The position numbers were made by a program, and so were the translations under genes. Shown piece after piece: positions 2,370 to 55,365 of a stretch of 56,642 nt of DNA (position 1 is its first letter; each line of letters opens with the position of its first letter). Origin of the DNA: an uncultured Chitinophagaceae bacterium (GTDB lineage Bacteria > Bacteroidota > Ignavibacteria > UBA10030 > UBA8401); the NCBI GenBank assembly GCA_964384415.1, contig CAYLMV010000002.1, positions 24,389-81,030 on the forward strand. Direction: 5' to 3'. The notes beneath the pieces are model-generated. The model was not told the DNA's origin. It was given only the letters and a program-made list of their open reading frames with translations, and did no database searches.

Positions 2370-3113
2370 ATGTCCATCTATCAGAATCTGCTCTCGGCTG
2401 CGGCGAATAAAGGCGCGGCATACCTTGTTCTTGTCGACCCGGACAAAATTGACCGGGGCAACTTTCCAAACTTTGTCGAACAGGCAACCGCGGCCGGCGT
2501 CGATGGGTTTCTCGTCGGCGGCAGCCTTGTCCTTGCCGATTCTTTTGAAGAGTCGATCAAGATTCTCAAACACCATACGAACGTGCCGGTGGTGATCTTT
2601 CCAGGGAGCGTCCAACAGATTTCTAAGGAAGCCGATGCAATCTTGTATTTGTCGCTGCTGAGCGGACGGAATGCCGAACACATCATCGGAAGCCAGGTAA
2701 CGGCTGCTCCGATCATCAAGAAGATGAACCTGGAAGCGATCTCGACTGCCTATATGCTCGTCGAGTCGGGCAGGACGACATCGGCTGAATTCATGAGCAA
2801 CACGAAACCGCTCCCCCGAAATAAACCCGACATCGCCGTCGCGCATGCGATTGCAGCGGAGTATATCGGATTCAAATTCCTCTATTTAGAAGCGGGCAGC
2901 GGCGCCGAACATTCGGTCCCGGAAGACATGATCAGCGCCGTTGCGAAATACTCCTCTGTTCCGCTGATCGTCGGCGGAGGCATTACGACGGCGGAGGATG
3001 CGCACAAAAAGGTACAAGCGGGGGCAAAATTTGTCGTCACCGGGAACGTTCTGGAAAAGAGCGGCTCGAAAGATCTCATCAAAGAATTCGCGTCGGCGAT
3101 CCACGTTCGATAA
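2370..3113 (+). CDS. Geranylgeranylglyceryl/heptaprenylglyceryl phosphate synthase (PcrB/GGGPS family)
   Basis: Motifs LVLVDPDK, FLVGGS, PVVIFPG, ADAILYLSLLSGRN, YLEAGSGA, PLIVGGGI; 247 aa, TIM-barrel size. Confidence 0.92.
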   Translation: MSIYQNLLSAAANKGAAYLVLVDPDKIDRGNFPNFVEQATAAGVDGFLVGGSLVLADSFEESIKILKHHTNVPVVIFPGSVQQISKEADAILYLSLLSGRNAEHIIGSQVTAAPIIKKMNLEAISTAYMLVESGRTTSAEFMSNTKPLPRNKPDIAVAHAIAAEYIGFKFLYLEAGSGAEHSVPEDMISAVAKYSSVPLIVGGGITTAEDAHKKVQAGAKFVVTGNVLEKSGSKDLIKEFASAIHVR

Positions 3114-3148
3114 TCGTATCTGAGCCGAATTACAAGGAAAGAACACGC

Positions 3149-3754
3149 ATGGCACATCTTCCACTCACGCTCGTCTACCGTCAGCGCTTCATCCAGGATT
3201 CGTTGAAAGCGAGCGCTGAATTGAAATTGAAGATCGCTGAACAGTGCAGCGCGGACATTTCGAAAGCCATCGACATGCTCGTCAATGCATTCAACCATAA
3301 GAAGAAGATTCTCTTATGCGGAAACGGCGGAAGCGCCGCGGATGCCCAGCACCTTGCGACCGAATTTGTCGTAAGACTCTCCCCGAACATCAAACGCCCG
3401 GGACTGCCGGCGATCGCCCTGACGACAGATTCGTCAACGCTCACAGCCGGCTCCAATGATTTTGGATACAACGCCGTATTCGCGCGGTCCGTCGAGGCGC
3501 TCGGCAACGAGGGAGACGTCCTCATCGGAATCAGCACAAGCGGCAATTCGGAAAGCGTGAACAACGCCTTCATGAAAGCGAAGGAGATGAAGATGGCGAC
3601 AATGGCCTTGCTCGGAAGGGACGGCGGCAAAGCAAAGAGCCTGGCCGACCTTGCGATCGTCGTCCCATCGGACGACACCCAGCGGATTCAGGAAGGACAC
3701 ATCACCATCGGCCACATTATTTTTCAGGAAGTTGAACAAGAGATCTTCGGCTGA
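3149..3754 (+). CDS. gmhA: D-sedoheptulose 7-phosphate isomerase (SIS domain)
   Basis: Motifs CGNGGSAADAQH, NDFGY, ISTSGNS, RIQEGH. Confidence 0.93.
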   Translation: MAHLPLTLVYRQRFIQDSLKASAELKLKIAEQCSADISKAIDMLVNAFNHKKKILLCGNGGSAADAQHLATEFVVRLSPNIKRPGLPAIALTTDSSTLTAGSNDFGYNAVFARSVEALGNEGDVLIGISTSGNSESVNNAFMKAKEMKMATMALLGRDGGKAKSLADLAIVVPSDDTQRIQEGHITIGHIIFQEVEQEIFG

Positions 3755-12102: not shown

Positions 12103-14517
12103 TCATTTCATTAACACTAGTTTCTTGGCAACGGTGGCGCTGCCGGACCGAAGCTGATAGAAATAGATGCCGCTCGCCATTGCTGATGCATTCCAGCGCA
12201 CCGAGTGACTTCCCGCTGTCATTTCCCCCGAAATAAGCGCGGCTACCTCCCTTCCAACGATATCATATATCTTGAGCGTAGTGAAGCCGGCAGTTGGGAG
12301 AGCGAAGGAAATTGTAGTCGTTGGATTGAAAGGGTTAGGATAGTTCTGCAGAAGTTCATATCGAGTCGGCAACACCTGGGATGGCTTATCGCCAACCGCG
12401 GCGACTCCACCGCTCGTTGTATGGAGAATTGTCCCGTTCGACCCGACGACCCACCCGTTATTAGCATCTACAAACTCGGCAGCATAAAAATCGCTATTGA
12501 CGCTCGTGAGCTGTTTATTCCATGCCGCTCCACCGTCCGTCGACTTGTAGATATTTGAATTATCACCAACAACCCATATTGTTGAAGAATTCATACCGTG
12601 CGCACAACGGTAGTTGCCTACGATGTTCGGTTTGGCTGTCCAATTGGCGCCCCCATCCGTGGTTGAATAGGTATTCCCATATGCGCCCACTGCCATCCCA
12701 ACATTTGCGTCGGCAAAAATCACCGAGTACAGTATGTTTGTAGGACTCATTTGAGAATTCCATGATGTGCCGCCATCGGTCGTCTTATATATTGGTCCAG
12801 AGCCAACGACCCAGCCTATGCTTGAACTCACCATCGATATAGCACAAAGTTGACCATACCCTGGGTTTTGAGACGTCCAGGTTGTTCCACCGTTGGTTGT
12901 TTTCAGAATTGTTGCCTGTCCCGCTCCTCCCACAGCCCATCCGGTACTTCCGTCGATAAATTGAACCGCCAGAAGATTATCCGCCGTAGTTGAATTCTGG
13001 GATGTCCAAGTGCTGCCACCGTCGGTTGTCATCTTAATGATACCGCCATTACCGACCAACCAGCCAGTCGAAGTATTGAGGAAATAGATTCCGTTGATGT
13101 CGGCTGATGTGTTCGTTGTTTGGCTTGACCATGCTGCACCGGCATTAGTTGTTTTCAGTAGAGTTCCGTTTGAACCGGCAACCCAGCCGTTCGTTGTGTT
13201 GACAAACATTACCGCCATTAACGAACTCGAAGTGTTACTCGTTTGAGGCAGCCATGAAATGGATCCAACAGAAATAATGAGGTTCTTGTCACCGGGTTGA
13301 GCTTGTGGAATATTCTTGTCATACCCCAAATTCTCTGGAAGATCATCGATGCCAAGCTGGTAATTAGAGTACCTTTTTGTAACGTGGAGGGTGAAATTGC
13401 CCGTGCTGGGATCAGAGCTGGCATTGGTCTGCCCATAACTTTGGGCATACGTGTACAACCTGAACGAGAGACCGCCGGGCGCATGACCATCGACGGTGAT
13501 TTTCCCGGTAATGGAATCATCAGCTGTATATGCGGTCATGTCAACGCGCAAACTGTCATATTGATGGAGAGAGATTGAACTGACGAATGGCGGAAAGTAG
13601 GACGGGGCAACTCCTTCAGTGTTAGCTTGAATATTCCAAATGGGGAATGACGTGATGTCATTTAATGTGTATCCGAAAGCGTAGAAGCCGTTTGCGTCAG
13701 TCGTTGCGGATTTGTTTCCTCCGCCATACCCATAGAATTGTGGGTTGGAATTAATGATCACGCCTGCCAATGCCCGCCCATCTTCTCCCTTCAAATAACC
13801 GACGAGTTTCGCCGCCGCTGAAACAAACGTGAAGTTCACATCAGTATAACTCTTTGACAAGGTGAGAGTAATGCTGCTGGGTGTGACTGCATAAGGGGAA
13901 AACTGACCCGCCACGGATACTTTCATCTGCTGGCCGCTCACGGAAGCATTGAAATTCATAGTGTAATTGCCCCCGGCATCCGTCAATGCCATCCATCCCG
14001 GCCCTCTGTCCCCTCCTGTTTGAATCAGAATGTTCTGTGCGCTGATTCCGGGTGGCGGTGTTACTTTTCCGGATATCGTGAATGCAGGCGATGGCATCGT
14101 CGTTACCGTTCCGGTTATCGTTTGGCCGATCCCATTATTGGTGAACTTTAGAACATAGTTGGCAGGTGCAAGGCCAAAATTTGAGACCGTGAGGAGGCAG
14201 TGGCCGTTCGCTACGCTATCCATGTCACCGGGCCCGCTGTCTCCGCTGAAGCTGCCGTCGGTCTGCGTAATTGTCCCGAATAACTGAATGTCGGTTGCTG
14301 GATCGATGACTCCATTTCCGTTTACATCAATCCAGATTTCACAATCGGCCGAACTCCCCAGGGGAAGATTATACTCCCACGTGAAAAAGTCGCCTTGCGT
14401 GAAACTAAAATTCGATGCGGAGCCGTTGACAGTCAGGTTGGTTACCTGTGCGTCTGCATTCGATTGGAGGAAGAAAATCAAGCATACTATTGAAATTATC
14501 AGGGATATCTTTTTCAT
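12103..14517 (-). CDS. T9SS type A sorted protein with Ig-like/carboxypeptidase-regulatory-like domains and a YCF48/BNR beta-propeller
   Basis: Start revised to ATG 14517 (MKKISLIISIV..., AGGA RBS); repeated LKTT-GG-TW units; C-terminal QNYPNPFNPTT...KKLVLMK. Confidence 0.88.
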   Translation of the reverse strand: MKKISLIISIVCLIFFLQSNADAQVTNLTVNGSASNFSFTQGDFFTWEYNLPLGSSADCEIWIDVNGNGVIDPATDIQLFGTITQTDGSFSGDSGPGDMDSVANGHCLLTVSNFGLAPANYVLKFTNNGIGQTITGTVTTMPSPAFTISGKVTPPPGISAQNILIQTGGDRGPGWMALTDAGGNYTMNFNASVSGQQMKVSVAGQFSPYAVTPSSITLTLSKSYTDVNFTFVSAAAKLVGYLKGEDGRALAGVIINSNPQFYGYGGGNKSATTDANGFYAFGYTLNDITSFPIWNIQANTEGVAPSYFPPFVSSISLHQYDSLRVDMTAYTADDSITGKITVDGHAPGGLSFRLYTYAQSYGQTNASSDPSTGNFTLHVTKRYSNYQLGIDDLPENLGYDKNIPQAQPGDKNLIISVGSISWLPQTSNTSSSLMAVMFVNTTNGWVAGSNGTLLKTTNAGAAWSSQTTNTSADINGIYFLNTSTGWLVGNGGIIKMTTDGGSTWTSQNSTTADNLLAVQFIDGSTGWAVGGAGQATILKTTNGGTTWTSQNPGYGQLCAISMVSSSIGWVVGSGPIYKTTDGGTSWNSQMSPTNILYSVIFADANVGMAVGAYGNTYSTTDGGANWTAKPNIVGNYRCAHGMNSSTIWVVGDNSNIYKSTDGGAAWNKQLTSVNSDFYAAEFVDANNGWVVGSNGTILHTTSGGVAAVGDKPSQVLPTRYELLQNYPNPFNPTTTISFALPTAGFTTLKIYDIVGREVAALISGEMTAGSHSVRWNASAMASGIYFYQLRSGSATVAKKLVLMK

Positions 14518-14643
14518 ACAATTTGTCCTTTCTTGACAAAGCGGTGCTGCTCTCTTTATTTTATCTTCAAAAAGAGGCTCTGCGTGTAGCCGCTTTGGCG
14601 CTCCGGAGACTAACAAACACCTTTCTCCAGCACTCCAAAACTC

Positions 14644-14684
14644 AAACAAAAAAGCCTCTGCCAGCGTACGCCAACAGAGGCTTT
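14644..14684 (-). terminator. Intrinsic terminator inside the 5' leader of the T9SS gene
   Basis: Minus strand AAAGCCTCTG-ttggcgtacgctgg-CAGAGGCTTT followed by TTTGTTTG. Confidence 0.75.
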
Positions 14685-19537: not shown

Positions 19538-22045
19538 TCACGCCTTCCAGTATAAGAAATCCTTCAGGTCCGAAAGTTGCGTCGGATCGATCCCCCGGCG
19601 CCCTCCGAAGACGAACCTGTTCTCGCCCCGCCGGATTCTCGCCGTGTTCGGGCGGGAATTCTTCTTCGCGGCGATATCCTGGAGTGCCGCAAAAAGAAGA
19701 CTCTGCAATTCGGTCCGGTCGATCGTGGCCCCCTTTTCCGCCGCGCGAGTCTTCGTCATTTCGGAGACGATATGGTCGATGCCGAGTTCGGCGTAGGCAT
19801 CTTCCTGAGACGGGAATTTGGAGACGGCCGTCGCAAAGGAATTCACCGTTGCCTGATGATCGCCGCCGAGGTATTGCAGCAGCCCCATATTCAGGTCGAT
19901 ACCGCCGTCTTTGTTGTCGGCGTCGAGAGCCGCCGCATACGATTTGTAGGCGTTCGCCGAATCGCCCTGCAGCAGATAGATGTTGCCGAGGTTGTTCTTG
20001 GTCGATGCGCCCGACAGGCTCTTCAGAGTTGAAATTGCTTCGCTGTAGCGGCCGCTGTTTGCGAGATACATCGCGGCAAGGTTGAGCGATTTCTCATCCC
20101 CAAGTTGTTTGAGGCTTGCAACTTTTTGATCGAGCATCTCGCCGTTTATTCTGGCAACGTTTTTCAAGTCAGCGTTCATCAGCGCACTCACTTTTTCGGC
20201 CGGCGGCGCCTCGGAGGGTTTGGCGTTTACTCCAAGATTCGCCGGAGGAAACTGCTCCCATGCCTCGCGGACGTCGATGATATCGAGTCTACCCTGCGCA
20301 TCGGAGATTCTGTAGTAACCGTCCGCAGCCAGCCTCCACGCTTCGACAAACGGATGGTTGATGATCGTGGTCTCGAGGGGAATCCACACCGTATTGTTCC
20401 TCACGACATAGTCCTTCGGGTTCAGGCTGATTCTTGAGGCATTCTTCTTGTTGACACCCGTGTCAAAGATAATGAAGACATGGTCGGATGTTCCGACAAG
20501 GGCCGTGCGGATACCGATATTTTCCAGACAGGCCGCCAATAGCACGGAACTGCCGCTGCAGTTTGCGGTATGATTCGCGAGTGTCTCGCGGGGATACTGA
20601 ATGTCGTCAAGCAAATCCGCATCGGCGACCCGCCACGGCGCACTGACGTAGTTGATCGAAAATGCGCGGATGGCTTCCCACACGGCCATCGCGTTCAGAA
20701 CATTTTTCGGCGCTCCTTCAACGAGCGTCTGATCGTATTTTACAGAGCCGAGAACATAGCGCGAAAAATTCTTAACCGCCTCGTCGTTCGAAGTGATGAA
20801 CGCGCCGACGGAATTGGGGCGCGACCAGGTGATCGACGTTCGGCTGTACACCGTCACCGGCTTCACCAGGCTCCTGGACTTCTGCTCCCCGCCAAGCGTG
20901 TACGTCAATTCCGCCTTGATCTGAGCGACCGTATTCTCATTGATCGCGAGCATCTGCTTCGCATCAAGCGTCACTGAAACAGGGAACGTCTCCTTGGAAG
21001 AGGCTTTTAGGAGAGGGATCACCTGTTCCGAAGGAAGCTGCATATAATTCGGCACGAAGAAGCTTGCCTTCACGTTGTTGATATCGGTCTTGCCGGTGTT
21101 TTCGATGGTGATCTGTCCGATTGGATGGTAGGCGTAATAATTGTAGGCAGACGGGAAAATGTTCTCAACTTTGAATTCCGAGATCTCCAGAGCGTTTGGC
21201 ACCGCATAACTCACTTTCGCTTTCGTTCCCGTCACCTTCGTATTGACGTCGATGCGGTTTCCGGTGAACGATTCGACTTTGTACTCCGGCATCGAAGAGA
21301 ATTGCTTCCGTAGATCGTCGATCGATCCACGAATCCATGCATCCATGACGGCCGCATCGCCTTCCATGTACCGGAGTTTCATTTTCTGGATCATCGGGAT
21401 CTTGCCGGGGAGGTCCTGTTCGATCTTCATCAGCGACGCGTCGTTCACTCCAAGAAGCGCGAGCTGAATGGCGACTGGCTTCTCTTTCGCCTCCTTCAGG
21501 TTTTTCGCGACCTTTGCCACCAGGTCGTCTGCCAGGATTCCACCCAGTTCATCGAGAGCCTTGGACGCGGCCTGCGATTTGCCCTGGGACGCCTTTTTTG
21601 CGGTGGCGCTTGCGACAGCGAGAATGTCCCCGGTATCTGTGATGATCACCTTCACTTCGCCATCGGCGGTATACTCGACCGTTTTTATTCCGTAGGTCTC
21701 TCTCTCTTCACCGAACACAGCTTGCGCGCCGCCGGCGATAATCAATTCGGCTCCGAAGCGTCTTCCGAGCTCCTTTGCTTTCGTCGGATTGAGATCGCCG
21801 AGGGAGAGATCCCGGGCTCGCACCGATTCGAACTGCGATTTGTCGACAAGCCGGTAGCCTTTTGCGAGAAAGGCGCTTTCAATTTTTCCTGTAACCTTCT
21901 GCGCCGTGGCGTCTTTGTCGTCTATCTTCTCATCGACGACGACCATGATGCGCGGCATGTCGGAGTCTTGTGCCGCCACGCGGCTCGTGGAGGCAAATGT
22001 TGCCATGATAGATAAAATGAGTAGAAGGGTCATCACTCGTTTCAT
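19538..22045 (-). CDS. Exported protein: FlgT/CsgG-like N-domain, Ig-like domain, transglutaminase-like domain, TPRs
   Basis: Signal peptide; KIESAFLAKGYRLVD...AKELGRRFGAELII; ANCSGSSVLLAACLENIG...DHVF; C-terminal NNLGNIY/LNMGLL TPR pattern. Confidence 0.72.
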   Translation of the reverse strand: MKRVMTLLLILSIMATFASTSRVAAQDSDMPRIMVVVDEKIDDKDATAQKVTGKIESAFLAKGYRLVDKSQFESVRARDLSLGDLNPTKAKELGRRFGAELIIAGGAQAVFGEERETYGIKTVEYTADGEVKVIITDTGDILAVASATAKKASQGKSQAASKALDELGGILADDLVAKVAKNLKEAKEKPVAIQLALLGVNDASLMKIEQDLPGKIPMIQKMKLRYMEGDAAVMDAWIRGSIDDLRKQFSSMPEYKVESFTGNRIDVNTKVTGTKAKVSYAVPNALEISEFKVENIFPSAYNYYAYHPIGQITIENTGKTDINNVKASFFVPNYMQLPSEQVIPLLKASSKETFPVSVTLDAKQMLAINENTVAQIKAELTYTLGGEQKSRSLVKPVTVYSRTSITWSRPNSVGAFITSNDEAVKNFSRYVLGSVKYDQTLVEGAPKNVLNAMAVWEAIRAFSINYVSAPWRVADADLLDDIQYPRETLANHTANCSGSSVLLAACLENIGIRTALVGTSDHVFIIFDTGVNKKNASRISLNPKDYVVRNNTVWIPLETTIINHPFVEAWRLAADGYYRISDAQGRLDIIDVREAWEQFPPANLGVNAKPSEAPPAEKVSALMNADLKNVARINGEMLDQKVASLKQLGDEKSLNLAAMYLANSGRYSEAISTLKSLSGASTKNNLGNIYLLQGDSANAYKSYAAALDADNKDGGIDLNMGLLQYLGGDHQATVNSFATAVSKFPSQEDAYAELGIDHIVSEMTKTRAAEKGATIDRTELQSLLFAALQDIAAKKNSRPNTARIRRGENRFVFGGRRGIDPTQLSDLKDFLYWKA

Positions 22046-32084: not shown

Positions 32085-32240
32085 ACTTCCTCCTCATTAT
32101 TTTGAAATGTGTTTCTCCATCGAAATGCTGATACTCCATATTGACAAACGCAATATCCATCACAAAGAGCGCCAATAGATCTCACTCCCCAAGTACATTT
32201 GCCGCCGTTTCAATCATGATTCTGCTTGACGGATCCGATC

Positions 32241-32731: not shown

Positions 32732-32766
32732 AAAATAAAAAACCCTCTTCATAATGGAAGAGGGTT
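32732..32766 (-). terminator. Intrinsic terminator (attenuator) in the leader of the DUF4395-sulfurtransferase operon
   Basis: Minus strand AACCCTCTTC-cattat-GAAGAGGGTT followed by TTTTATTTT, ending 27 nt before the DUF4395 ATG. Confidence 0.88.
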
Positions 32767-32794
32767 CGTTTGTCTTTAGACTTGTAGTTCGCTT

Positions 32795-32923
32795 TTACGC
32801 GGCGACTGCGATCCTTTCGCTTCCATCAATAATCAATGATCCGGGACAGCAACAACATGCTGCACAACAGCAAACTCCGCAGAGCTGTCTGATGGATTCG
32901 ATATGAACGGGATTGGATGGCAT
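32795..32923 (-). CDS. Poly-cysteine leader peptide (uORF, 42 aa)
   Basis: MPSNPVHIESIRQLCGVCCCAACCCCPGSLIIDGSERIAVAA*; 8 Cys in codons 15-26; below the ORF-track size cut-off. Confidence 0.85.
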   Translation of the reverse strand: MPSNPVHIESIRQLCGVCCCAACCCCPGSLIIDGSERIAVAA

Positions 32924-32931
32924 TAGTATAT

Positions 32932-32959
32932 AATCTACTATTCCTGGAACAATTGTCAA
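32932..32959 (-). promoter_or_regulatory. sigma70-type promoter placing the TSS at or near the uORF ATG
   Basis: Minus strand TTGACA-16 nt-TAGATT, then 8 nt to ATG; no Shine-Dalgarno sequence. Confidence 0.55.
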
Positions 32960-32999
32960 GTTTCGAAAGTGCCCGTTAGTCGGGCATTTTCAGAATAAA

Positions 33000-33094
33000 G
33001 TCATTGCGAGGACCCCGACGTTTTACGTCGGGGGACGAAGCAATCTCCTCTTGAAATAAGGGGATTGCTTCGGCAATGCACGCCTCGCAAAGAC
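33000..33094. repeat. Branched palindromic REP-like element (GTCATTGCGAGG...CGAAGCAATC...GATTGCTTCG...CCTCGCAAAGAC)
   Basis: Nested inverted repeats: outer gtcattgcgagg/cctcgcaaagac, inner cgaagcaatc/gattgcttcg, plus a ccccgacg/cgtcgggg hairpin. Confidence 0.85.
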
Positions 33095-33310
33095 CTGTTT
33101 TTCGAAATGTCTCAGTAGCAAGTGCCCGAATGAAAAGGGGCAACATCTGCGGCCCGGATCGCTCAGTTGTTCCCAATCATAGAGTGAGATCGAGAAAGAA
33201 CAAAGTCCATGCCCGTGTTATCTCGTTCGCAAACTCTCCCGCTTCCGCGGGACAACCTGTTTGGGTACGAGCATTGCAGTAGACTTTTCATCCCCGCCCG
33301 CCAATGTTTT

Positions 33311-34821: not shown

Positions 34822-35121
34822 TCATTTGCTTTGACGGATTAATTTTTCGAGAGCATTGAGATGCTCTGTGAAGGCTTTTCGTCCTGACACAGTTACGGAA
34901 TAGGTGGTGAGAGTCTTCTTCCCAACAAACTCTTTGTCTACCTTGACATATTTTTTGTGTTCCAGGACCGCGATATGTGTAGCCAGATTCCCGTCGGTGA
35001 GACTGAGCATTTGCTTCAGTGAATTGAAGTCGACAGAGTCGTTCACCACCAGTATTGACATCACAGCAAGGCGGACTCGGTTCTCGAATGCTTTGTTAAG
35101 ACTTTCAACAATATCTTTCAC
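34822..35121 (-). CDS. Winged-helix transcriptional regulator (ArsR/MarR-like)
   Basis: FENRVRLAVMSIL...DFNSLKQMLSLTDGNLATHI..LE...GRKAF..HL; GTGA overlap. Confidence 0.9.
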   Translation of the reverse strand: MKDIVESLNKAFENRVRLAVMSILVVNDSVDFNSLKQMLSLTDGNLATHIAVLEHKKYVKVDKEFVGKKTLTTYSVTVSGRKAFTEHLNALEKLIRQSK

Positions 35122-35842: not shown

Positions 35843-36553
35843 TTAAAAGTGGAGGAATTGTATTGCCAGGCCGCATGCCAATACCGTCAGGCCGGCAAGC
35901 GCGTGACTGTAGCGTTCAAGCTTTCCAACGGGGAGAAGGGAGAGTCCGAAGAGCGACGTCAAGACGACGGTGAGCATCGTGGCGATGGTAATGATGCCGA
36001 ATATCACGCTCACCGCCGCGACCTGACCATAATGCCCTTTCGCGGCTGGGTACATGAGGATAGGAATAAGCGGTTCGCAGGGACCGAAGACGAAAATCGT
36101 GAAGAGGATCCACGGCGTCATAGACTCCTTCTCTTCTTCATGGACATGGAGATGTTCCATCTGGTGTGTATGTTCATGAGTATGGAAGGTCCCGTCCGGG
36201 TGGACGTGAACATGGTGATGAGGCCTATTCCTTAACGCCCGCCGGATTCCCCACACGAGGTAGACAAGGCCGAATGCAATGAGAAACCAGCCGGCGAAAT
36301 TTCCCCGGAAGGACTCGATCCACTGCAAATGCATAATGGCAACGCCGAACATAATTCCAACAATACCGAGAACAACCGAACTGCCGACATGACCGATGCC
36401 GCAGAGAATGGTCACCCAGATTGTCTTGACCCGTGACCACTTCCCCGCCCGGGCCATCACGATGAACGGGAGATAATGATCCGGACCAAAGAGCGTATGA
36501 ATGAACGCTACCGAAACTGCGGTAAGAAGCAAGAGTGACAACTCGCCGGTCAT
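35843..36553 (-). CDS. Ni/Co transporter-like permease (UreH/RcnA-like; TauE/DsbD_2 superfamily)
   Basis: HTLFGPDH motif, His-rich loop HHHVHVHPDGTFHTHEHTHQMEHLHVH, GPCEPLIP; second ATG preferred on RBS spacing. Confidence 0.78.
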   Translation of the reverse strand: MTGELSLLLLTAVSVAFIHTLFGPDHYLPFIVMARAGKWSRVKTIWVTILCGIGHVGSSVVLGIVGIMFGVAIMHLQWIESFRGNFAGWFLIAFGLVYLVWGIRRALRNRPHHHVHVHPDGTFHTHEHTHQMEHLHVHEEEKESMTPWILFTIFVFGPCEPLIPILMYPAAKGHYGQVAAVSVIFGIITIATMLTVVLTSLFGLSLLPVGKLERYSHALAGLTVLACGLAIQFLHF

Positions 36554-36630
36554 GAACATCCTTTGCTGTTGTACAAAATAAATCGCACCCCCTAGAAAAT
36601 ACGGAATTCTTCAGATCAACTCAATGCATT

Positions 36631-37941
36631 TCAGAAACTATTGTCCAGCGCTCTCCGGAGATCGTAGATAATATCCTCGGCTTTCTCAAGACCGACGGAG
36701 AGACGGATTCCCTCGGGATCAATTCCGCGTTTCAATTGTTCTTCCGGCGGGATGGCGGCATGGGTCATGGAGCCGGGGTGCTCGATGAGTGTCCGGATCG
36801 TTCCGAGACTCACCGCAAGCGTGATCGTATACGATTTCTTGGCGATGAAATTGACCAGAGAATCGGCGCGGCGCCTCCGCTCTTTCGGCGTACTCCCTTT
36901 CGGAAGGAAGTACAGAAGAGTCCCGGGGGCAAAATTTCCGTCGTAGTCGACAAGCTGGGAATGAGCCAACGATCGCTGTGGAAATGAATCGAGGCCGGGA
37001 TAACTCACCGACGCGATTCGCTTGTCGCGCTCAAGCGCCTCCGCGACTTTTTGCGCAGACTCAATTTGCTGACGGAACCGTACCGCAAGCGACGGAAGTC
37101 CGTAGACAAGAATCGGCCAGGCGCTCTTTGTCGCCAGCACCCCGCCGAAATCCTTACGGTATAACATCAGGTGGTCGTAACTCCATTGCGGACCGATGAC
37201 GACTCCCCCCATGTCCGTGCTGAAACCGCATAACCCCTTCGTAAGAGATTCCACCACAAAGTCGACCCCGAAGGACATGGGCCGTTGACAAAAGGGAGTC
37301 GCAAACGTGTTGTCCACCACAGTGAAGATGCGGTGCAGAGGTGTCCGATGCGCGTTGTGCAGCTTGGCCAGCGCTACGATCTTCTGAATATCGATGAGCT
37401 CCATCGTCGGATTCACCGGCGTTTCAAAATAGAGCATGCGCGTTTGCGGCGTGATGGCCTTGCTCAACGCTTTGGCGTCGTTGAAGTCTACCCAGGTGAC
37501 CTTAATCTTGTACCGCGGGTACCAGTTTTTGAAGAGAGAATAAGTGCACCCATACAACATTTTGTGCGCGACGATCTCGCTCCCCGTGCCGGCGAGGATC
37601 CCGCACACGGCAGAGATCGCCGCCATCCCCGTCGAAAATGTAATGGCGCACTCTCCCCCTTCGGCCATCGCCAGATTTTCTTCCAGAATCTCCTTGTTGG
37701 GTTCGCCGAGACGGTCATAAATATAGATCGGGGCCTTCGATTTTACCTGAAAATCATCTCCGTGATGCGCGAATTCTATGAAGCCTTTCGCGCCGCGTTT
37801 CGTCGTGTCGAGCCGATACGTAGAAGATGACGAGATTGGGGGAATAAGATGGTGGCTGTAATCCCACTTTGTCGTGTAGGGTTTTCCGTAGATGAGCCGT
37901 GTTTCGGCGGCGTATGCTCTTGCCTTCGATTTCTTTTTCAT
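36631..37941 (-). CDS. PLP-dependent Cys/Met metabolism enzyme (methionine gamma-lyase-like)
   Basis: FSTGMAAI, LYGCTY, YFETPVNP, VDNTFATP, SLTK (PLP Lys), AVSLG...LIEHPGSMTH, IRLSVGLE. Confidence 0.88.
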   Translation of the reverse strand: MKKKSKARAYAAETRLIYGKPYTTKWDYSHHLIPPISSSSTYRLDTTKRGAKGFIEFAHHGDDFQVKSKAPIYIYDRLGEPNKEILEENLAMAEGGECAITFSTGMAAISAVCGILAGTGSEIVAHKMLYGCTYSLFKNWYPRYKIKVTWVDFNDAKALSKAITPQTRMLYFETPVNPTMELIDIQKIVALAKLHNAHRTPLHRIFTVVDNTFATPFCQRPMSFGVDFVVESLTKGLCGFSTDMGGVVIGPQWSYDHLMLYRKDFGGVLATKSAWPILVYGLPSLAVRFRQQIESAQKVAEALERDKRIASVSYPGLDSFPQRSLAHSQLVDYDGNFAPGTLLYFLPKGSTPKERRRRADSLVNFIAKKSYTITLAVSLGTIRTLIEHPGSMTHAAIPPEEQLKRGIDPEGIRLSVGLEKAEDIIYDLRRALDNSF

Positions 37942-54651: not shown

Positions 54652-55365
54652 CTACCAATCTTTCTCGACGTTGGTCTTGACAGCAGCTTTTCGGCGAAGT
54701 TTCTTCTGGACATTCTTCTCGTCATTCTTCAACGCATCGAGAATCCGTTGTGCATCAGCCCTGGACATCTGTTTTTCCTGCTGCTGTTGCTGCCGTTGTT
54801 GGTCCTGCTTATTCTGCTGCTGCTTTTGCTGATCTTGTTGTTTCTGCTGCTGATCCTGTTTCTGCTTGTCCTTTTGATTCTTCTGCTGATTCTTGTCGTT
54901 CTTGTCCTGCTTCTGCTGCTGCTTTTGTTGCTGCTGCTGTTTCAACATTTGTTCGGCGTAAGCGAGATTGTACTTCGTTTCTTCGTCGTCCGGGTTGAGC
55001 TTCAACGACCGTTTATATTCGTCGATGCCTTCCTGGTATTCCTTCTTCTCCAACTGGGCATTGCCGATATTGTGGTGAAGCTGAGCGCTGATTTTCGGGT
55101 CTGCCGTCTTCGTTAATGCATTCTGGTAGTTCTGGGCGGCTTCATCGTACCTCTGTTGTTTATAGAGCGCGTCGCCGAGATCAAAGTATCCCTGCATGAT
55201 TTGATTGTCTTTTTCCAGAGACTTCCGATACTCGGCCTCGGCATCGGCAAATTTCTGATCCTTGTAGAGGTTGTTGCCATCGCCGATATGCGATCGGACA
55301 GACTGGGCCATAAGCGCCGGTGCGATGTAGAGTATCAGGATCCCGTATCTGAAGAGTGACTTCAT
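54652..55365 (-). CDS. batC: BatC-like TPR protein
   Basis: GN.LYK...AEAEYRK, YK.SLKLNP.DEETKYNLAYA, Gln/Lys-rich linker, A.RIL.AL..DEK, EKDW end. Confidence 0.88.
   Translation of the reverse strand: MKSLFRYGILILYIAPALMAQSVRSHIGDGNNLYKDQKFADAEAEYRKSLEKDNQIMQGYFDLGDALYKQQRYDEAAQNYQNALTKTADPKISAQLHHNIGNAQLEKKEYQEGIDEYKRSLKLNPDDEETKYNLAYAEQMLKQQQQQKQQQKQDKNDKNQQKNQKDKQKQDQQQKQQDQQKQQQNKQDQQRQQQQQEKQMSRADAQRILDALKNDEKNVQKKLRRKAAVKTNVEKDW

Follow-up and report, generated by a model that had tools for sequence, protein, structure and literature searches.

A probable cysteine-responsive transcription attenuator with a Cys-rich leader ORF upstream of DUF4395 and a CysA2-type sulfurtransferase gene

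The window analyzed here is a 56,642-nucleotide (nt) stretch of contig CAYLMV010000002.1 from an uncultured Chitinophagaceae bacterium. On its minus strand, a short open reading frame (sORF) that is dense in cysteine codons is located upstream of a gene for a DUF4395 membrane protein, which is followed by a gene for a two-domain rhodanese (Table 1). This leader, together with its counterparts in other genomes, is the subject of the present study. The rhodanese matched the M. tuberculosis CysA2/CysA3 structures (PDB 3HWI and 3AAX) with an E value of 1e-91. An earlier note on this DNA had pointed to a TTGACA-16-TAGATT promoter, an ORF of 42 amino acids (aa) and eight Cys in codons 15-26, all of which were found again in our analysis; the promoter is of the sigma-70 type. 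The peptide encoded by the 42-codon sORF is MPSNPVHIESIRQLCGVCCCAACCCCPGSLIIDGSERIAVAA, and its Cys run includes the consecutive stretches CCC and CCCC. Ahead of the window sORF ATG, no motif similar to a Shine-Dalgarno (SD) sequence could be found.

Downstream of the sORF, a hairpin with a U-tract (32767-32732) reads GAACCCUCUUC / CAUUAU / GAAGAGGGUUU, then UUUUAUUUU. The 10-bp terminator of the earlier note corresponds to this structure, which has 11 bp if the terminal G-U pair is counted; its distance from the sORF stop codon, previously given as 29 nt, is 27-28 nt. When folded alone, the terminator reached -16.4 kcal/mol (z-score -5.5), and none of 200 shuffled sequences was as good. The stretch proposed as the 5' strand of an antiterminator (segment 2) lies inside the sORF, beginning 16 nt past the last Cys codon and finishing 11 nt ahead of the stop codon. 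Its core 9-mer UGAUGGAAG (32828-32820) is complementary to CUUCCAUUA (32760-32752), and the 9 bp that had been claimed between them were confirmed, including one G-U. Segment 3, namely the terminator 5' arm and loop, has two alternative partners, either segment 2 or the terminator 3' arm. With only ~12 nt between the U-tract and the SD of the DUF4395 gene, an additional promoter for DUF4395 would not fit, and a consensus scan, which returned the promoter and the terminator described above, detected no promoter-like site between the sORF and DUF4395. Comparison with Rfam gave no match at E<=1 in the 30-36 kb region and none at the gathering score across the whole window.

Table 1. Coordinates of leader elements, genes and other sequence features (positions refer to the window unless a locus is named)
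Feature	Position	Strand	Remarks
-35 hexamer TTGACA	32959-32954	-	promoter consensus scan
-10 hexamer TAGATT	32937-32932	-	16-nt spacer after -35; promoter match 10/12
8-nt stretch ATATACTA	between -10 and ATG at 32923	-	
Leader sORF, 42 codons	32923-32795	-	ATG at 32923, TAA at 32797-32795
Cys-codon run, proposed sensor	32881-32846	-	codons 15, 18-20 and 23-26; 8 Cys/12 codons
Segment 2, proposed antiterminator 5' strand UUGAUGGAAGCGAAAGGAUCG	32829-32809	-	core UGAUGGAAG at 32828-32820
Tentative small hairpin, sORF stop codon in loop	32807-32785	-	inner stem CGC/GCG, 32801-32799 with 32792-32790
Segment 3, terminator 5' arm GAACCCUCUUC + loop CAUUAU	32767-32757 + 32756-32751	-	
Segment 4, terminator 3' arm GAAGAGGGUU(U) + U-tract UUUUAUUUU	32750-32732	-	
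SD AAGGA of DUF4395 gene	32719-32715	-	~12 nt past U-tract
DUF4395 (PF14340) membrane protein, 154 aa	32705-32241	-	Pfam E 3e-27
Two-domain rhodanese/thiosulfate sulfurtransferase, CysA2 type	32084-31233	-	
Leader peptide, Bacteroidota-type			MKAINPHIDSISCCSDVCCCAACCCC..
Leader peptide, Ignavibacteria			MIKNNKYFTAACCCCCCNTC..
Leader peptide, Chloroflexota			MFALIASRPDSISNACCCMCC..
Example leader peptides across clades			MKAINPHIDSISCCSDVCCCAACCCCTLNDNIDRSGRMADAP; MIKNNKYFTAACCCCCCNTCFPEAAGYFMNDLNIT; MFALIASRPDSISNACCCMCCRLDSSWSGVA; MQCMCCSCCYLSASIRVR
Thioredoxin gene after DUF4395	L010:3437-3838		Ignavibacteria-/Chloroflexota-type locus
Thioredoxin gene after DUF4395	L092:1548-1943		Ignavibacteria-/Chloroflexota-type locus
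Thioredoxin gene after DUF4395	L058:3462-3869		Ignavibacteria-/Chloroflexota-type locus
Thioredoxin gene after DUF4395	L148:1951-2400		Ignavibacteria-/Chloroflexota-type locus
Listed with thioredoxin genes	L161:1345-1767		
Inverted-repeat cluster	32965-33109		repeats 32965-32975/32981-32991, 33013-33021/33025-33033, 33036-33049/33059-33072; outer pair 32985-33011/33083-33109
Cys/Met-metabolism pyridoxal phosphate (PLP) enzyme	36631-37941	-	best E 1e-90
Small HTH_34 winged-helix regulator; DsbD_2-like membrane protein	34822-35121; 35843-36559	-	
848-aa protein	12103-14649	-	TIGR04183, E 7e-14
835-aa protein	19538-22045	-	E 2e-18, 65 bits

Using the DUF4395 protein as the anchor, we surveyed 160 loci (80 from species-representative genomes and 80 from metagenomes) for sense-strand ORFs that had at least 5 Cys per 12 codons and were located no more than 450 nt upstream of DUF4395. 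A Cys-dense sORF and a terminator hairpin were found directly upstream of DUF4395 in 26 distinct leaders including that of the window, 13 of which were of the Bacteroidota type (the clade of the window), 9 of the Ignavibacteria type and 4 from Chloroflexota. The search of homologous leaders for Cys-rich upstream ORFs (uORFs) and covarying stems, which had been suggested in the earlier note, has thus yielded 26 leaders from three phyla and one compensatory pair (see below). The leaders contained 4-10 Cys in runs of 4-18 codons, and peptides of different clades were unrelated in sequence apart from the Cys run (Table 1). It should be noted that the example MQCMCCSCCYLSASIRVR represents the 3' part of the L060 sORF, for which the called start gives MINETIRCRTC.... 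At loci without the sORF (most Chloroflexota and some Ignavibacteria), DUF4395 was located within an operon, behind other genes.

Such runs were rare in the controls. When ~150 of the same regions were read on the reverse strand, no 12 codons contained more than 4 Cys, and 30 shuffles of the window gave maxima of 4-6, as compared with 8 observed. Among runs of at least 7 Cys per 12 codons in 737 kb read in six frames, 15 were directly upstream of DUF4395 and 2 were elsewhere, the latter two being one off-frame artefact. A second Cys run of the window (~54,764-54,950, plus strand; 7-9 Cys per 12 codons) was rejected as a uORF, as it is an off-frame antisense reading of a poly-Gln/Lys tract. The host gene (54652-55365, minus strand) encodes a 237-aa protein with this low-complexity tract (KQQQQQKQQQKQDKND...), and a frame-shifted reading of its CAG/CAA repeats on the opposite strand yields TGC/TGT and hence the artefactual Cys codons. 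At the threshold of 5 Cys, the main source of background was a group of short, stop-to-stop ..QCRCCPNCCR.. segments (5 Cys per 12 codons), which recurred on the opposite strand in Chloroflexota ~700-800 nt upstream of DUF4395 (for example, L019:2241, L027:2243 and L035:2323) and most likely represent an off-frame reading of a conserved upstream gene.

A GC-rich hairpin followed by a U-tract was present between the sORF stop codon and the DUF4395 SD in all 26 leaders, with 19-40 nt from the stop codon to the hairpin and 24-63 nt from the hairpin to the start codon. The terminator arms differed by clade (CCCUCUUC in the Bacteroidota type, CCCGCUG in Ignavibacteria and GCCGGCUUCCC in Chloroflexota; further clade-specific stems were GAAGCCGA and CGCCCACCGGGCC). 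Within the clade of the window the terminator stem was 100% paired but invariant, so that its support comes from recurrence with different sequences elsewhere. The best duplex that a region past the Cys codons could form with the terminator 5' arm and loop was located inside the sORF in 25 of 25 leaders, and also in L010, which was checked separately. The distance from the last Cys codon to this pairing segment was 3-24 nt, and that from the segment to the stop codon was 10-31 nt in most leaders. The energies of the duplex between segments 2 and 3 ranged from -9.5 to -21.6 kcal/mol, with 23 of 25 at -13 or stronger, and p<=0.05 was obtained against dinucleotide shuffles in 18 of the 25 leaders (window: -13.4 kcal/mol, z-score -2.8). 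In the clade of the window, 98.3% of the cells of the antiterminator helix were paired, as compared with 41-69% when the partners were slid by 1-3 columns. One compensatory pair (A-U in 6 sequences, G-C in 4) was observed in this helix, and wobble changes occurred in terminator-loop positions that have no other reason for constraint.

The specificity of the pairing was further analyzed by a swap control, in which sORF regions and terminators were exchanged between clades while natural composition was kept. For 12 of the 15 terminators, the native sORF region gave a better pairing than the regions of all other clades, and among the 148 cross-clade combinations only 4 equalled the native one. 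When RNAalifold was applied to the full leader the terminator was obtained, and removal of the 3' arm gave the antiterminator. Similarly, the minimum free energy structure of the nascent RNA of the window (32833-32751) was the antiterminator (-18.5 kcal/mol, z-score -2.1), and addition of the 3' arm led to the terminator. When nascent leaders were folded with the second Cys codon masked by a ribosome and the 5' side occupied, the terminator arm paired with the 3' part of the sORF in 25 of 25 cases; this pairing was observed in 10 of 25 leaders in folds without ribosome.

The frame and the start of the sORF were examined in an alignment of 11 of the 13 Bacteroidota-type leaders. No insertion or deletion was found between start and stop, the stop codon was aligned in all sequences, and the Cys frame was the sole consistently open frame, the antisense frames included. 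Codons 23-26 encoded Cys in 10-11 of the 11 sequences. Apart from the Cys codons and segment 2, the three codon positions were equally variable, and the codon differences comprised 1181 non-synonymous and 249 synonymous ones. Both the equal variation and the non-synonymous excess imply that the peptide is not conserved as a protein; what is conserved in the alignment is the Cys codons (especially 23-26) and RNA segment 2, rather than the peptide. With regard to the promoter, TTGAC of the -35 element was invariant in the 11 aligned leaders and TTGAC(A/T) was found in all 13 members of the clade, which also shared a 16-nt spacer between -35 and -10. The -10 element was TAxxTT in 12 of the 13, L002 being a poor match. 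The distance between -10 and ATG/GTG was exactly 8 nt, with no SD, in all 13 leaders, which agrees with the probably leaderless start proposed in the earlier note; on the basis of this comparison, the prediction of a leaderless sORF start is well supported for the Bacteroidota-type clade. Three of the four Chloroflexota leaders had 7-8 nt between -10 and the start codon. A 5' leader of 26-33 nt was present in seven Ignavibacteria-type leaders; in L010 and L113, the start codon could not be called automatically.

Directly upstream of the window promoter, several inverted repeats are clustered. The innermost repeat adjoins the -35 element, and its CGGGCACTT(T/C)C arm also occurs ahead of -35 in L001 and L002. 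The cluster might terminate transcription of the upstream gene or serve as a regulator site.

The genes behind the leader varied between clades. Rhodanese followed DUF4395 directly in all 11 Bacteroidota-type loci with at least 500 nt of downstream sequence, as well as in the truncated L086. The spacer between the two genes was widely variable among close relatives (156 nt in the window, 32085-32240; ~25-40 nt in L003, L005-L008 and L084; ~200-310 nt in L001, L004 and L085), and no terminator-like site could be found in the window spacer. At Ignavibacteria- and Chloroflexota-type loci, DUF4395 was followed by a membrane-anchored thioredoxin (PF00085) instead of rhodanese. This thioredoxin has 131-149 aa, an N-terminal transmembrane segment and a CxxC domain, and its start often overlaps the DUF4395 stop codon. 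Since rhodanese or thioredoxin varies by clade, DUF4395 is the constant partner of the Cys sORF, and this gene context, along with the thioredoxin gene upstream of the mycobacterial sORF, suggests a functional trio of DUF4395, thioredoxin and CysA2. Alignment of DUF4395 proteins revealed invariant residues D9, N16, Q17, H81 and Q85 and a C128-x-G130-C131 motif. Some of these proteins (P0041, P0099, P0106, P0112 and P0116) were fused to a ThiS/MoaD-type sulfur-carrier domain (PF02597), and at many Chloroflexota loci the genes ahead of DUF4395 had C-termini that, by eye only, resembled cysteine synthase or MoeZ-type proteins. All these features point to a role of DUF4395 in sulfur relay or cysteine metabolism.

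Taken together, the element is quite likely a ribosome-mediated transcription attenuator that responds to Cys-tRNA and controls the operon of DUF4395 and the CysA2-type sulfurtransferase, as judged from sequence comparison and folding. The following course of events, from the transcription start site to the stalling, the OFF-state kinetics and the cell's response to cysteine, is inferred from the arrangement of the leader. Transcription would start at, or 1 nt before, the AUG of the leader ORF, and a 70S ribosome would load on the 5' end of the RNA upon its emergence. Under cysteine-replete conditions (OFF), the ribosome would cross the eight Cys codons and segment 2 to the stop codon. During synthesis of the terminator by RNA polymerase, the ribosome would be located between this element and segment 2; the local hairpin (32767-32740) with its U-tract would form and transcription would end ahead of DUF4395. 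When Cys-tRNA is scarce (ON), a stall within the Cys run would expose segment 2, which would take the terminator 5' arm and loop before the 3' arm exists. The terminator would then be blocked, and polymerase would read into DUF4395 and rhodanese.

Several results weigh against this interpretation. The earlier note had assumed that a ribosome running to the stop codon melts the antiterminator. The stall that frees the antiterminator fits the conserved clade-specific pairing, but melting by a ribosome at the stop codon was not reproduced by footprint masking: a mask of +/-15 nt at the stop codon leaves the segment-2 core uncovered, and folds with a ribosome at this position still permitted the antiterminator in approximately half of the leaders. 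Simple footprint masking was dropped as an account of the OFF state for the latter reason, and an explanation has to rely on steric and kinetic arguments. In leaders of the Bacteroidota and Ignavibacteria types, segment 2 ends 10-31 nt before the stop codon, which is why the footprint misses its core. The likeliest account would be that the ribosome is on, or just past, segment 2, within the 50-60-nt loop that the antiterminator must close, and that the terminator hairpin forms locally within a fraction of a second. In addition, a conserved anti-antiterminator (segment 1) was not found, the family-wide z-scores ranging from -1.9 to +1.8 against shuffles. The subclade of the window does show a trp-like pairing of segments 1 and 2 (-13 to -17 kcal/mol), with the Cys run at the tip of a long hairpin formed by the entire sORF; only there would an anti-antiterminator be conceivable. 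A small hairpin at the stop codon, with differing stems, was predicted in most members of the clade, its energy being no better than that of shuffles; we regard it as tentative. Ignavibacteria-type leaders present another difficulty, as segment 2 begins 5-15 nt past the last Cys codon there and would be free only when the ribosome stalls at earlier Cys codons. Finally, the invariant terminator stem gives no covariation signal within the clade of the window, the single compensatory pair may reflect one evolutionary event, and the within-clade counts were drawn from related sequences.

Leaderless poly-Cys sORF attenuators have been described in mycobacteria (Ms5788A/Rv0815A, the 'Cys ribulon'; Shell et al., 2015, PMC4633059; Canestrari et al., 2020, bioRxiv 10.1101/834739). 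The M. smegmatis Ms5788A operon responded to cysteine via the sORF in reporter, frameshift, deletion and proteomics experiments, and its mechanism is translational: the Cys tract sequesters the SD of the next gene, with polarity on later genes and no intrinsic terminator (bioRxiv 10.1101/834739). The statement in the earlier note that these systems act without the classical terminator switch was therefore correct. Starting from the M. tuberculosis CysA2 sequence, we identified Mycolicibacterium homologues and inspected their genomic context. The gene order in Mycolicibacterium chubuense was thioredoxin, a 29-aa sORF (VSARLELSLTKRRAVDLCRVAGCCCCCSC), DUF4395 (PF14340), CysA2 and DUF1416; the length of the sORF, the spacer and the sizes of the genes agree with the published Ms5788A-Ms5788-cysA2-Ms5790 operon of M. 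smegmatis. DUF4395 of M. chubuense was 29% identical to that of the window, and the M. chubuense leader had the Cys tract at the stop codon and no terminator. In Mycolicibacterium thermoresistibile (L162), a poly-Cys sORF (VFTRLEPLLTMRRAVDLCRTAGCFCCCSC, 2256-2345) was found directly before the CysA2 rhodanese (2501-3337), without DUF4395. The same arrangement, with the sORF before CysA2 and no intervening DUF4395, has been reported for M. tuberculosis. These gene orders indicate a loss or gain of DUF4395 among mycobacteria, with retention of the sORF.

The mycobacterial Ms5788A type and the window leader thus have in common a first-cistron sORF with a Cys run that is leaderless (predicted to be so in the window), control of DUF4395 and CysA2 gene types, and, as proposed for the window, a stall on Cys codons as the ON state. 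However, the Cys tract is C-terminal in mycobacteria and in the middle of the ORF in the window, where a separate downstream segment of the ORF pairs with an intrinsic terminator, whereas in mycobacteria the Cys tract itself pairs with the SD. Thioredoxin adjoins the sORF upstream in mycobacteria and follows DUF4395 in the Ignavibacteria and Chloroflexota versions. Moreover, the peptides of the window and M. chubuense share Cys residues only, and the phyla differ. With the sensor and the regulated genes in common and the pairing targets different, the expression platform of the window appears to differ from that of mycobacteria.

Translational control of the M. smegmatis kind, with a Cys tract that sequesters the DUF4395 SD and a merely incidental hairpin, is proven for the same operon type and has to be considered for the window as well. 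The duplex between Cys tract and SD reached -23.7 kcal/mol in M. chubuense, as compared with -10.8 kcal/mol in the window, which is at the level of shuffles (z-score +0.7); of the eight leaders tested, seven had z > -1, so that these duplexes were no better than shuffles. Together with a terminator between sORF and SD in all 26 leaders, which is absent from the mycobacterial leader, these data make translational control very unlikely here. That the combination is a chance product of an off-frame, low-complexity Cys run and an ordinary terminator is hardly conceivable, even though the same window contains such an artefact at ~54,764-54,950: the Cys run of the leader is intergenic and not within a gene, its frame has a conserved start, stop and length where antisense frames are not consistently open, and the arrangement recurs in 26 leaders of three phyla with near-zero background.

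Alternatively, the sORF might encode a functional Cys-rich micro-protein, such as a metal- or sulfur-binding partner of DUF4395, with the hairpin as its terminator and constitutive leak-through into the downstream genes. In the clade of the window, residues conserved around the Cys run (HI(D/E)S close to the N-terminal end, D(G/R)SxR close to the C-terminal end) would be compatible with this, the invariant CxGC of DUF4395 makes a thiol-based partner conceivable, and a role of the peptide was left open by Canestrari et al. Nevertheless, the three codon positions vary equally and non-synonymous differences far exceed synonymous ones, which would not be expected of such a protein; the conserved residues towards the C-terminus fall on the very RNA segment whose pairing partner is the terminator, and Cys is all that peptides of different clades share. 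A micro-protein would also leave the clade-specific complementarity to the terminator arm and loop unexplained, and a separate promoter for DUF4395 has no room. We thus consider this explanation unlikely, although a peptide function could coexist with attenuation. A different question is the cause of the stall, as the architecture demands a stall in the Cys run and is silent on its reason. A nascent poly-Cys arrest peptide, or redox, metal or sulfide chemistry, might replace low Cys-tRNA, and the invariant TGT TGT TGC TGT block, which is also conserved at synonymous sites, hints at extra constraints. Such a cause seems unlikely given that a conserved arrest motif is absent and the number and spacing of Cys vary widely (4-10 in runs of 4-18 codons), that the mycobacterial response tracks cysteine supply and requires in-frame Cys codons, and that the regulated genes are of the sulfur/cysteine type.

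Classical leader-peptide attenuators, which follow the Yanofsky model, are those of the trp, his, leu, thr, ilv and pheA operons. They share with the present element a leader ORF rich in the sensed codon, an intrinsic terminator and a mutually exclusive, ribosome-dependent antiterminator. The differences are that cysteine is sensed, that the start is leaderless and not SD-led in two of the three clades, that no conserved 1:2 anti-antiterminator or pause hairpin was detected in the leaders, and that segment 2 is followed by the stop codon only after 10-31 nt, instead of containing or adjoining it. To our knowledge, cysteine was long without a described leader-peptide attenuator, and the tested cases are mycobacterial and translational only.

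Two predicted systems are also relevant. The uORFC-8-2 element upstream of cysS in Rhodobacterales is a predicted attenuator that combines a U-tract terminator with a tandem of only two Cys codons, located in the first stem (about positions 14-15). It has been found in alpha-proteobacteria only (Brewer et al., 2021, PMC8632094). A terminator-type attenuator that senses Cys thus has a precedent in this prediction. Both elements are predictions in which uORF Cys codons are combined with a terminator and Cys-tRNA is presumed to be sensed at the level of transcription; the present leaders differ in having 4-10 Cys codons, DUF4395 downstream, an FCB-type (Fibrobacteres-Chlorobi-Bacteroidetes) or Chloroflexota origin and no sequence relationship to uORFC-8-2. 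In Actinobacteria, candidate Cys leader peptides with Cys runs near the stop codon were reported upstream of cys/cbs operons; no terminator hairpins were found for them, and the mechanism was left open, with Rho as a suggestion (Seliverstov et al., 2005, PMC1262725). The window leader, in contrast, has a canonical terminator and antiterminator. Our search of the literature revealed no such element for Bacteroidota, Ignavibacteria or Chloroflexota and none tied to DUF4395, and a cysteine attenuator in these phyla has apparently been undescribed so far. By its predicted architecture, the element would be a classical Cys attenuator without homology to those described, often leaderless and placed ahead of DUF4395 in several phyla.

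A broader hypothesis, to which we would give slightly less than an even chance, is that the poly-Cys sensor ORF and DUF4395 form a cross-phylum module (Actinomycetota, Bacteroidota-type FCB, Ignavibacteria and Chloroflexota) with two expression platforms, SD sequestration in mycobacteria and a terminator/antiterminator, often on a leaderless mRNA, in the other groups. The module might have evolved repeatedly by convergence or derive from an ancient leader whose sequence is no longer recognisable. DUF4395 might then be a core and hitherto overlooked component of cysteine/sulfur acquisition, acting with a CysA2-type sulfurtransferase or a membrane-anchored thioredoxin and switched on directly by uncharged tRNA-Cys. 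If the attenuator reading is true, Cys-tRNA sensing by ribosome stalling would extend to the FCB group and Chloroflexota, and a textbook terminator/antiterminator design would operate on an apparently leaderless transcript. The same sensor ahead of DUF4395 in four phyla provides a testable context of cysteine/sulfur supply for a gene of unknown function, and a natural comparison is offered by one sensing principle coupled to transcriptional or translational outputs. In practice, the motif could serve as a simple annotation marker of Cys-regulated operons in uncultured lineages. In principle the finding is unsurprising. It provides a clean and testable case that spans several phyla.

Some other genes of the window were also noted. 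A few kb upstream of the leader, the same strand encodes a PLP enzyme of Cys/Met metabolism, which belongs to the methionine gamma-lyase/cystathionine family and scored under the equivalog cut-offs, as well as a small HTH_34 winged-helix regulator and a DsbD_2-like membrane protein with a His-rich loop (Table 1). These genes may represent a loose sulfur/redox neighbourhood upstream of the attenuator. Two large proteins are encoded further away on the minus strand. The 835-aa protein showed weak partial similarity to the anti-phage protein ProA, with a score far under the cut-off of 1500, and the 848-aa protein carries a type-A sorting domain of the type IX secretion system (T9SS), which fits an FCB-group origin of the window.

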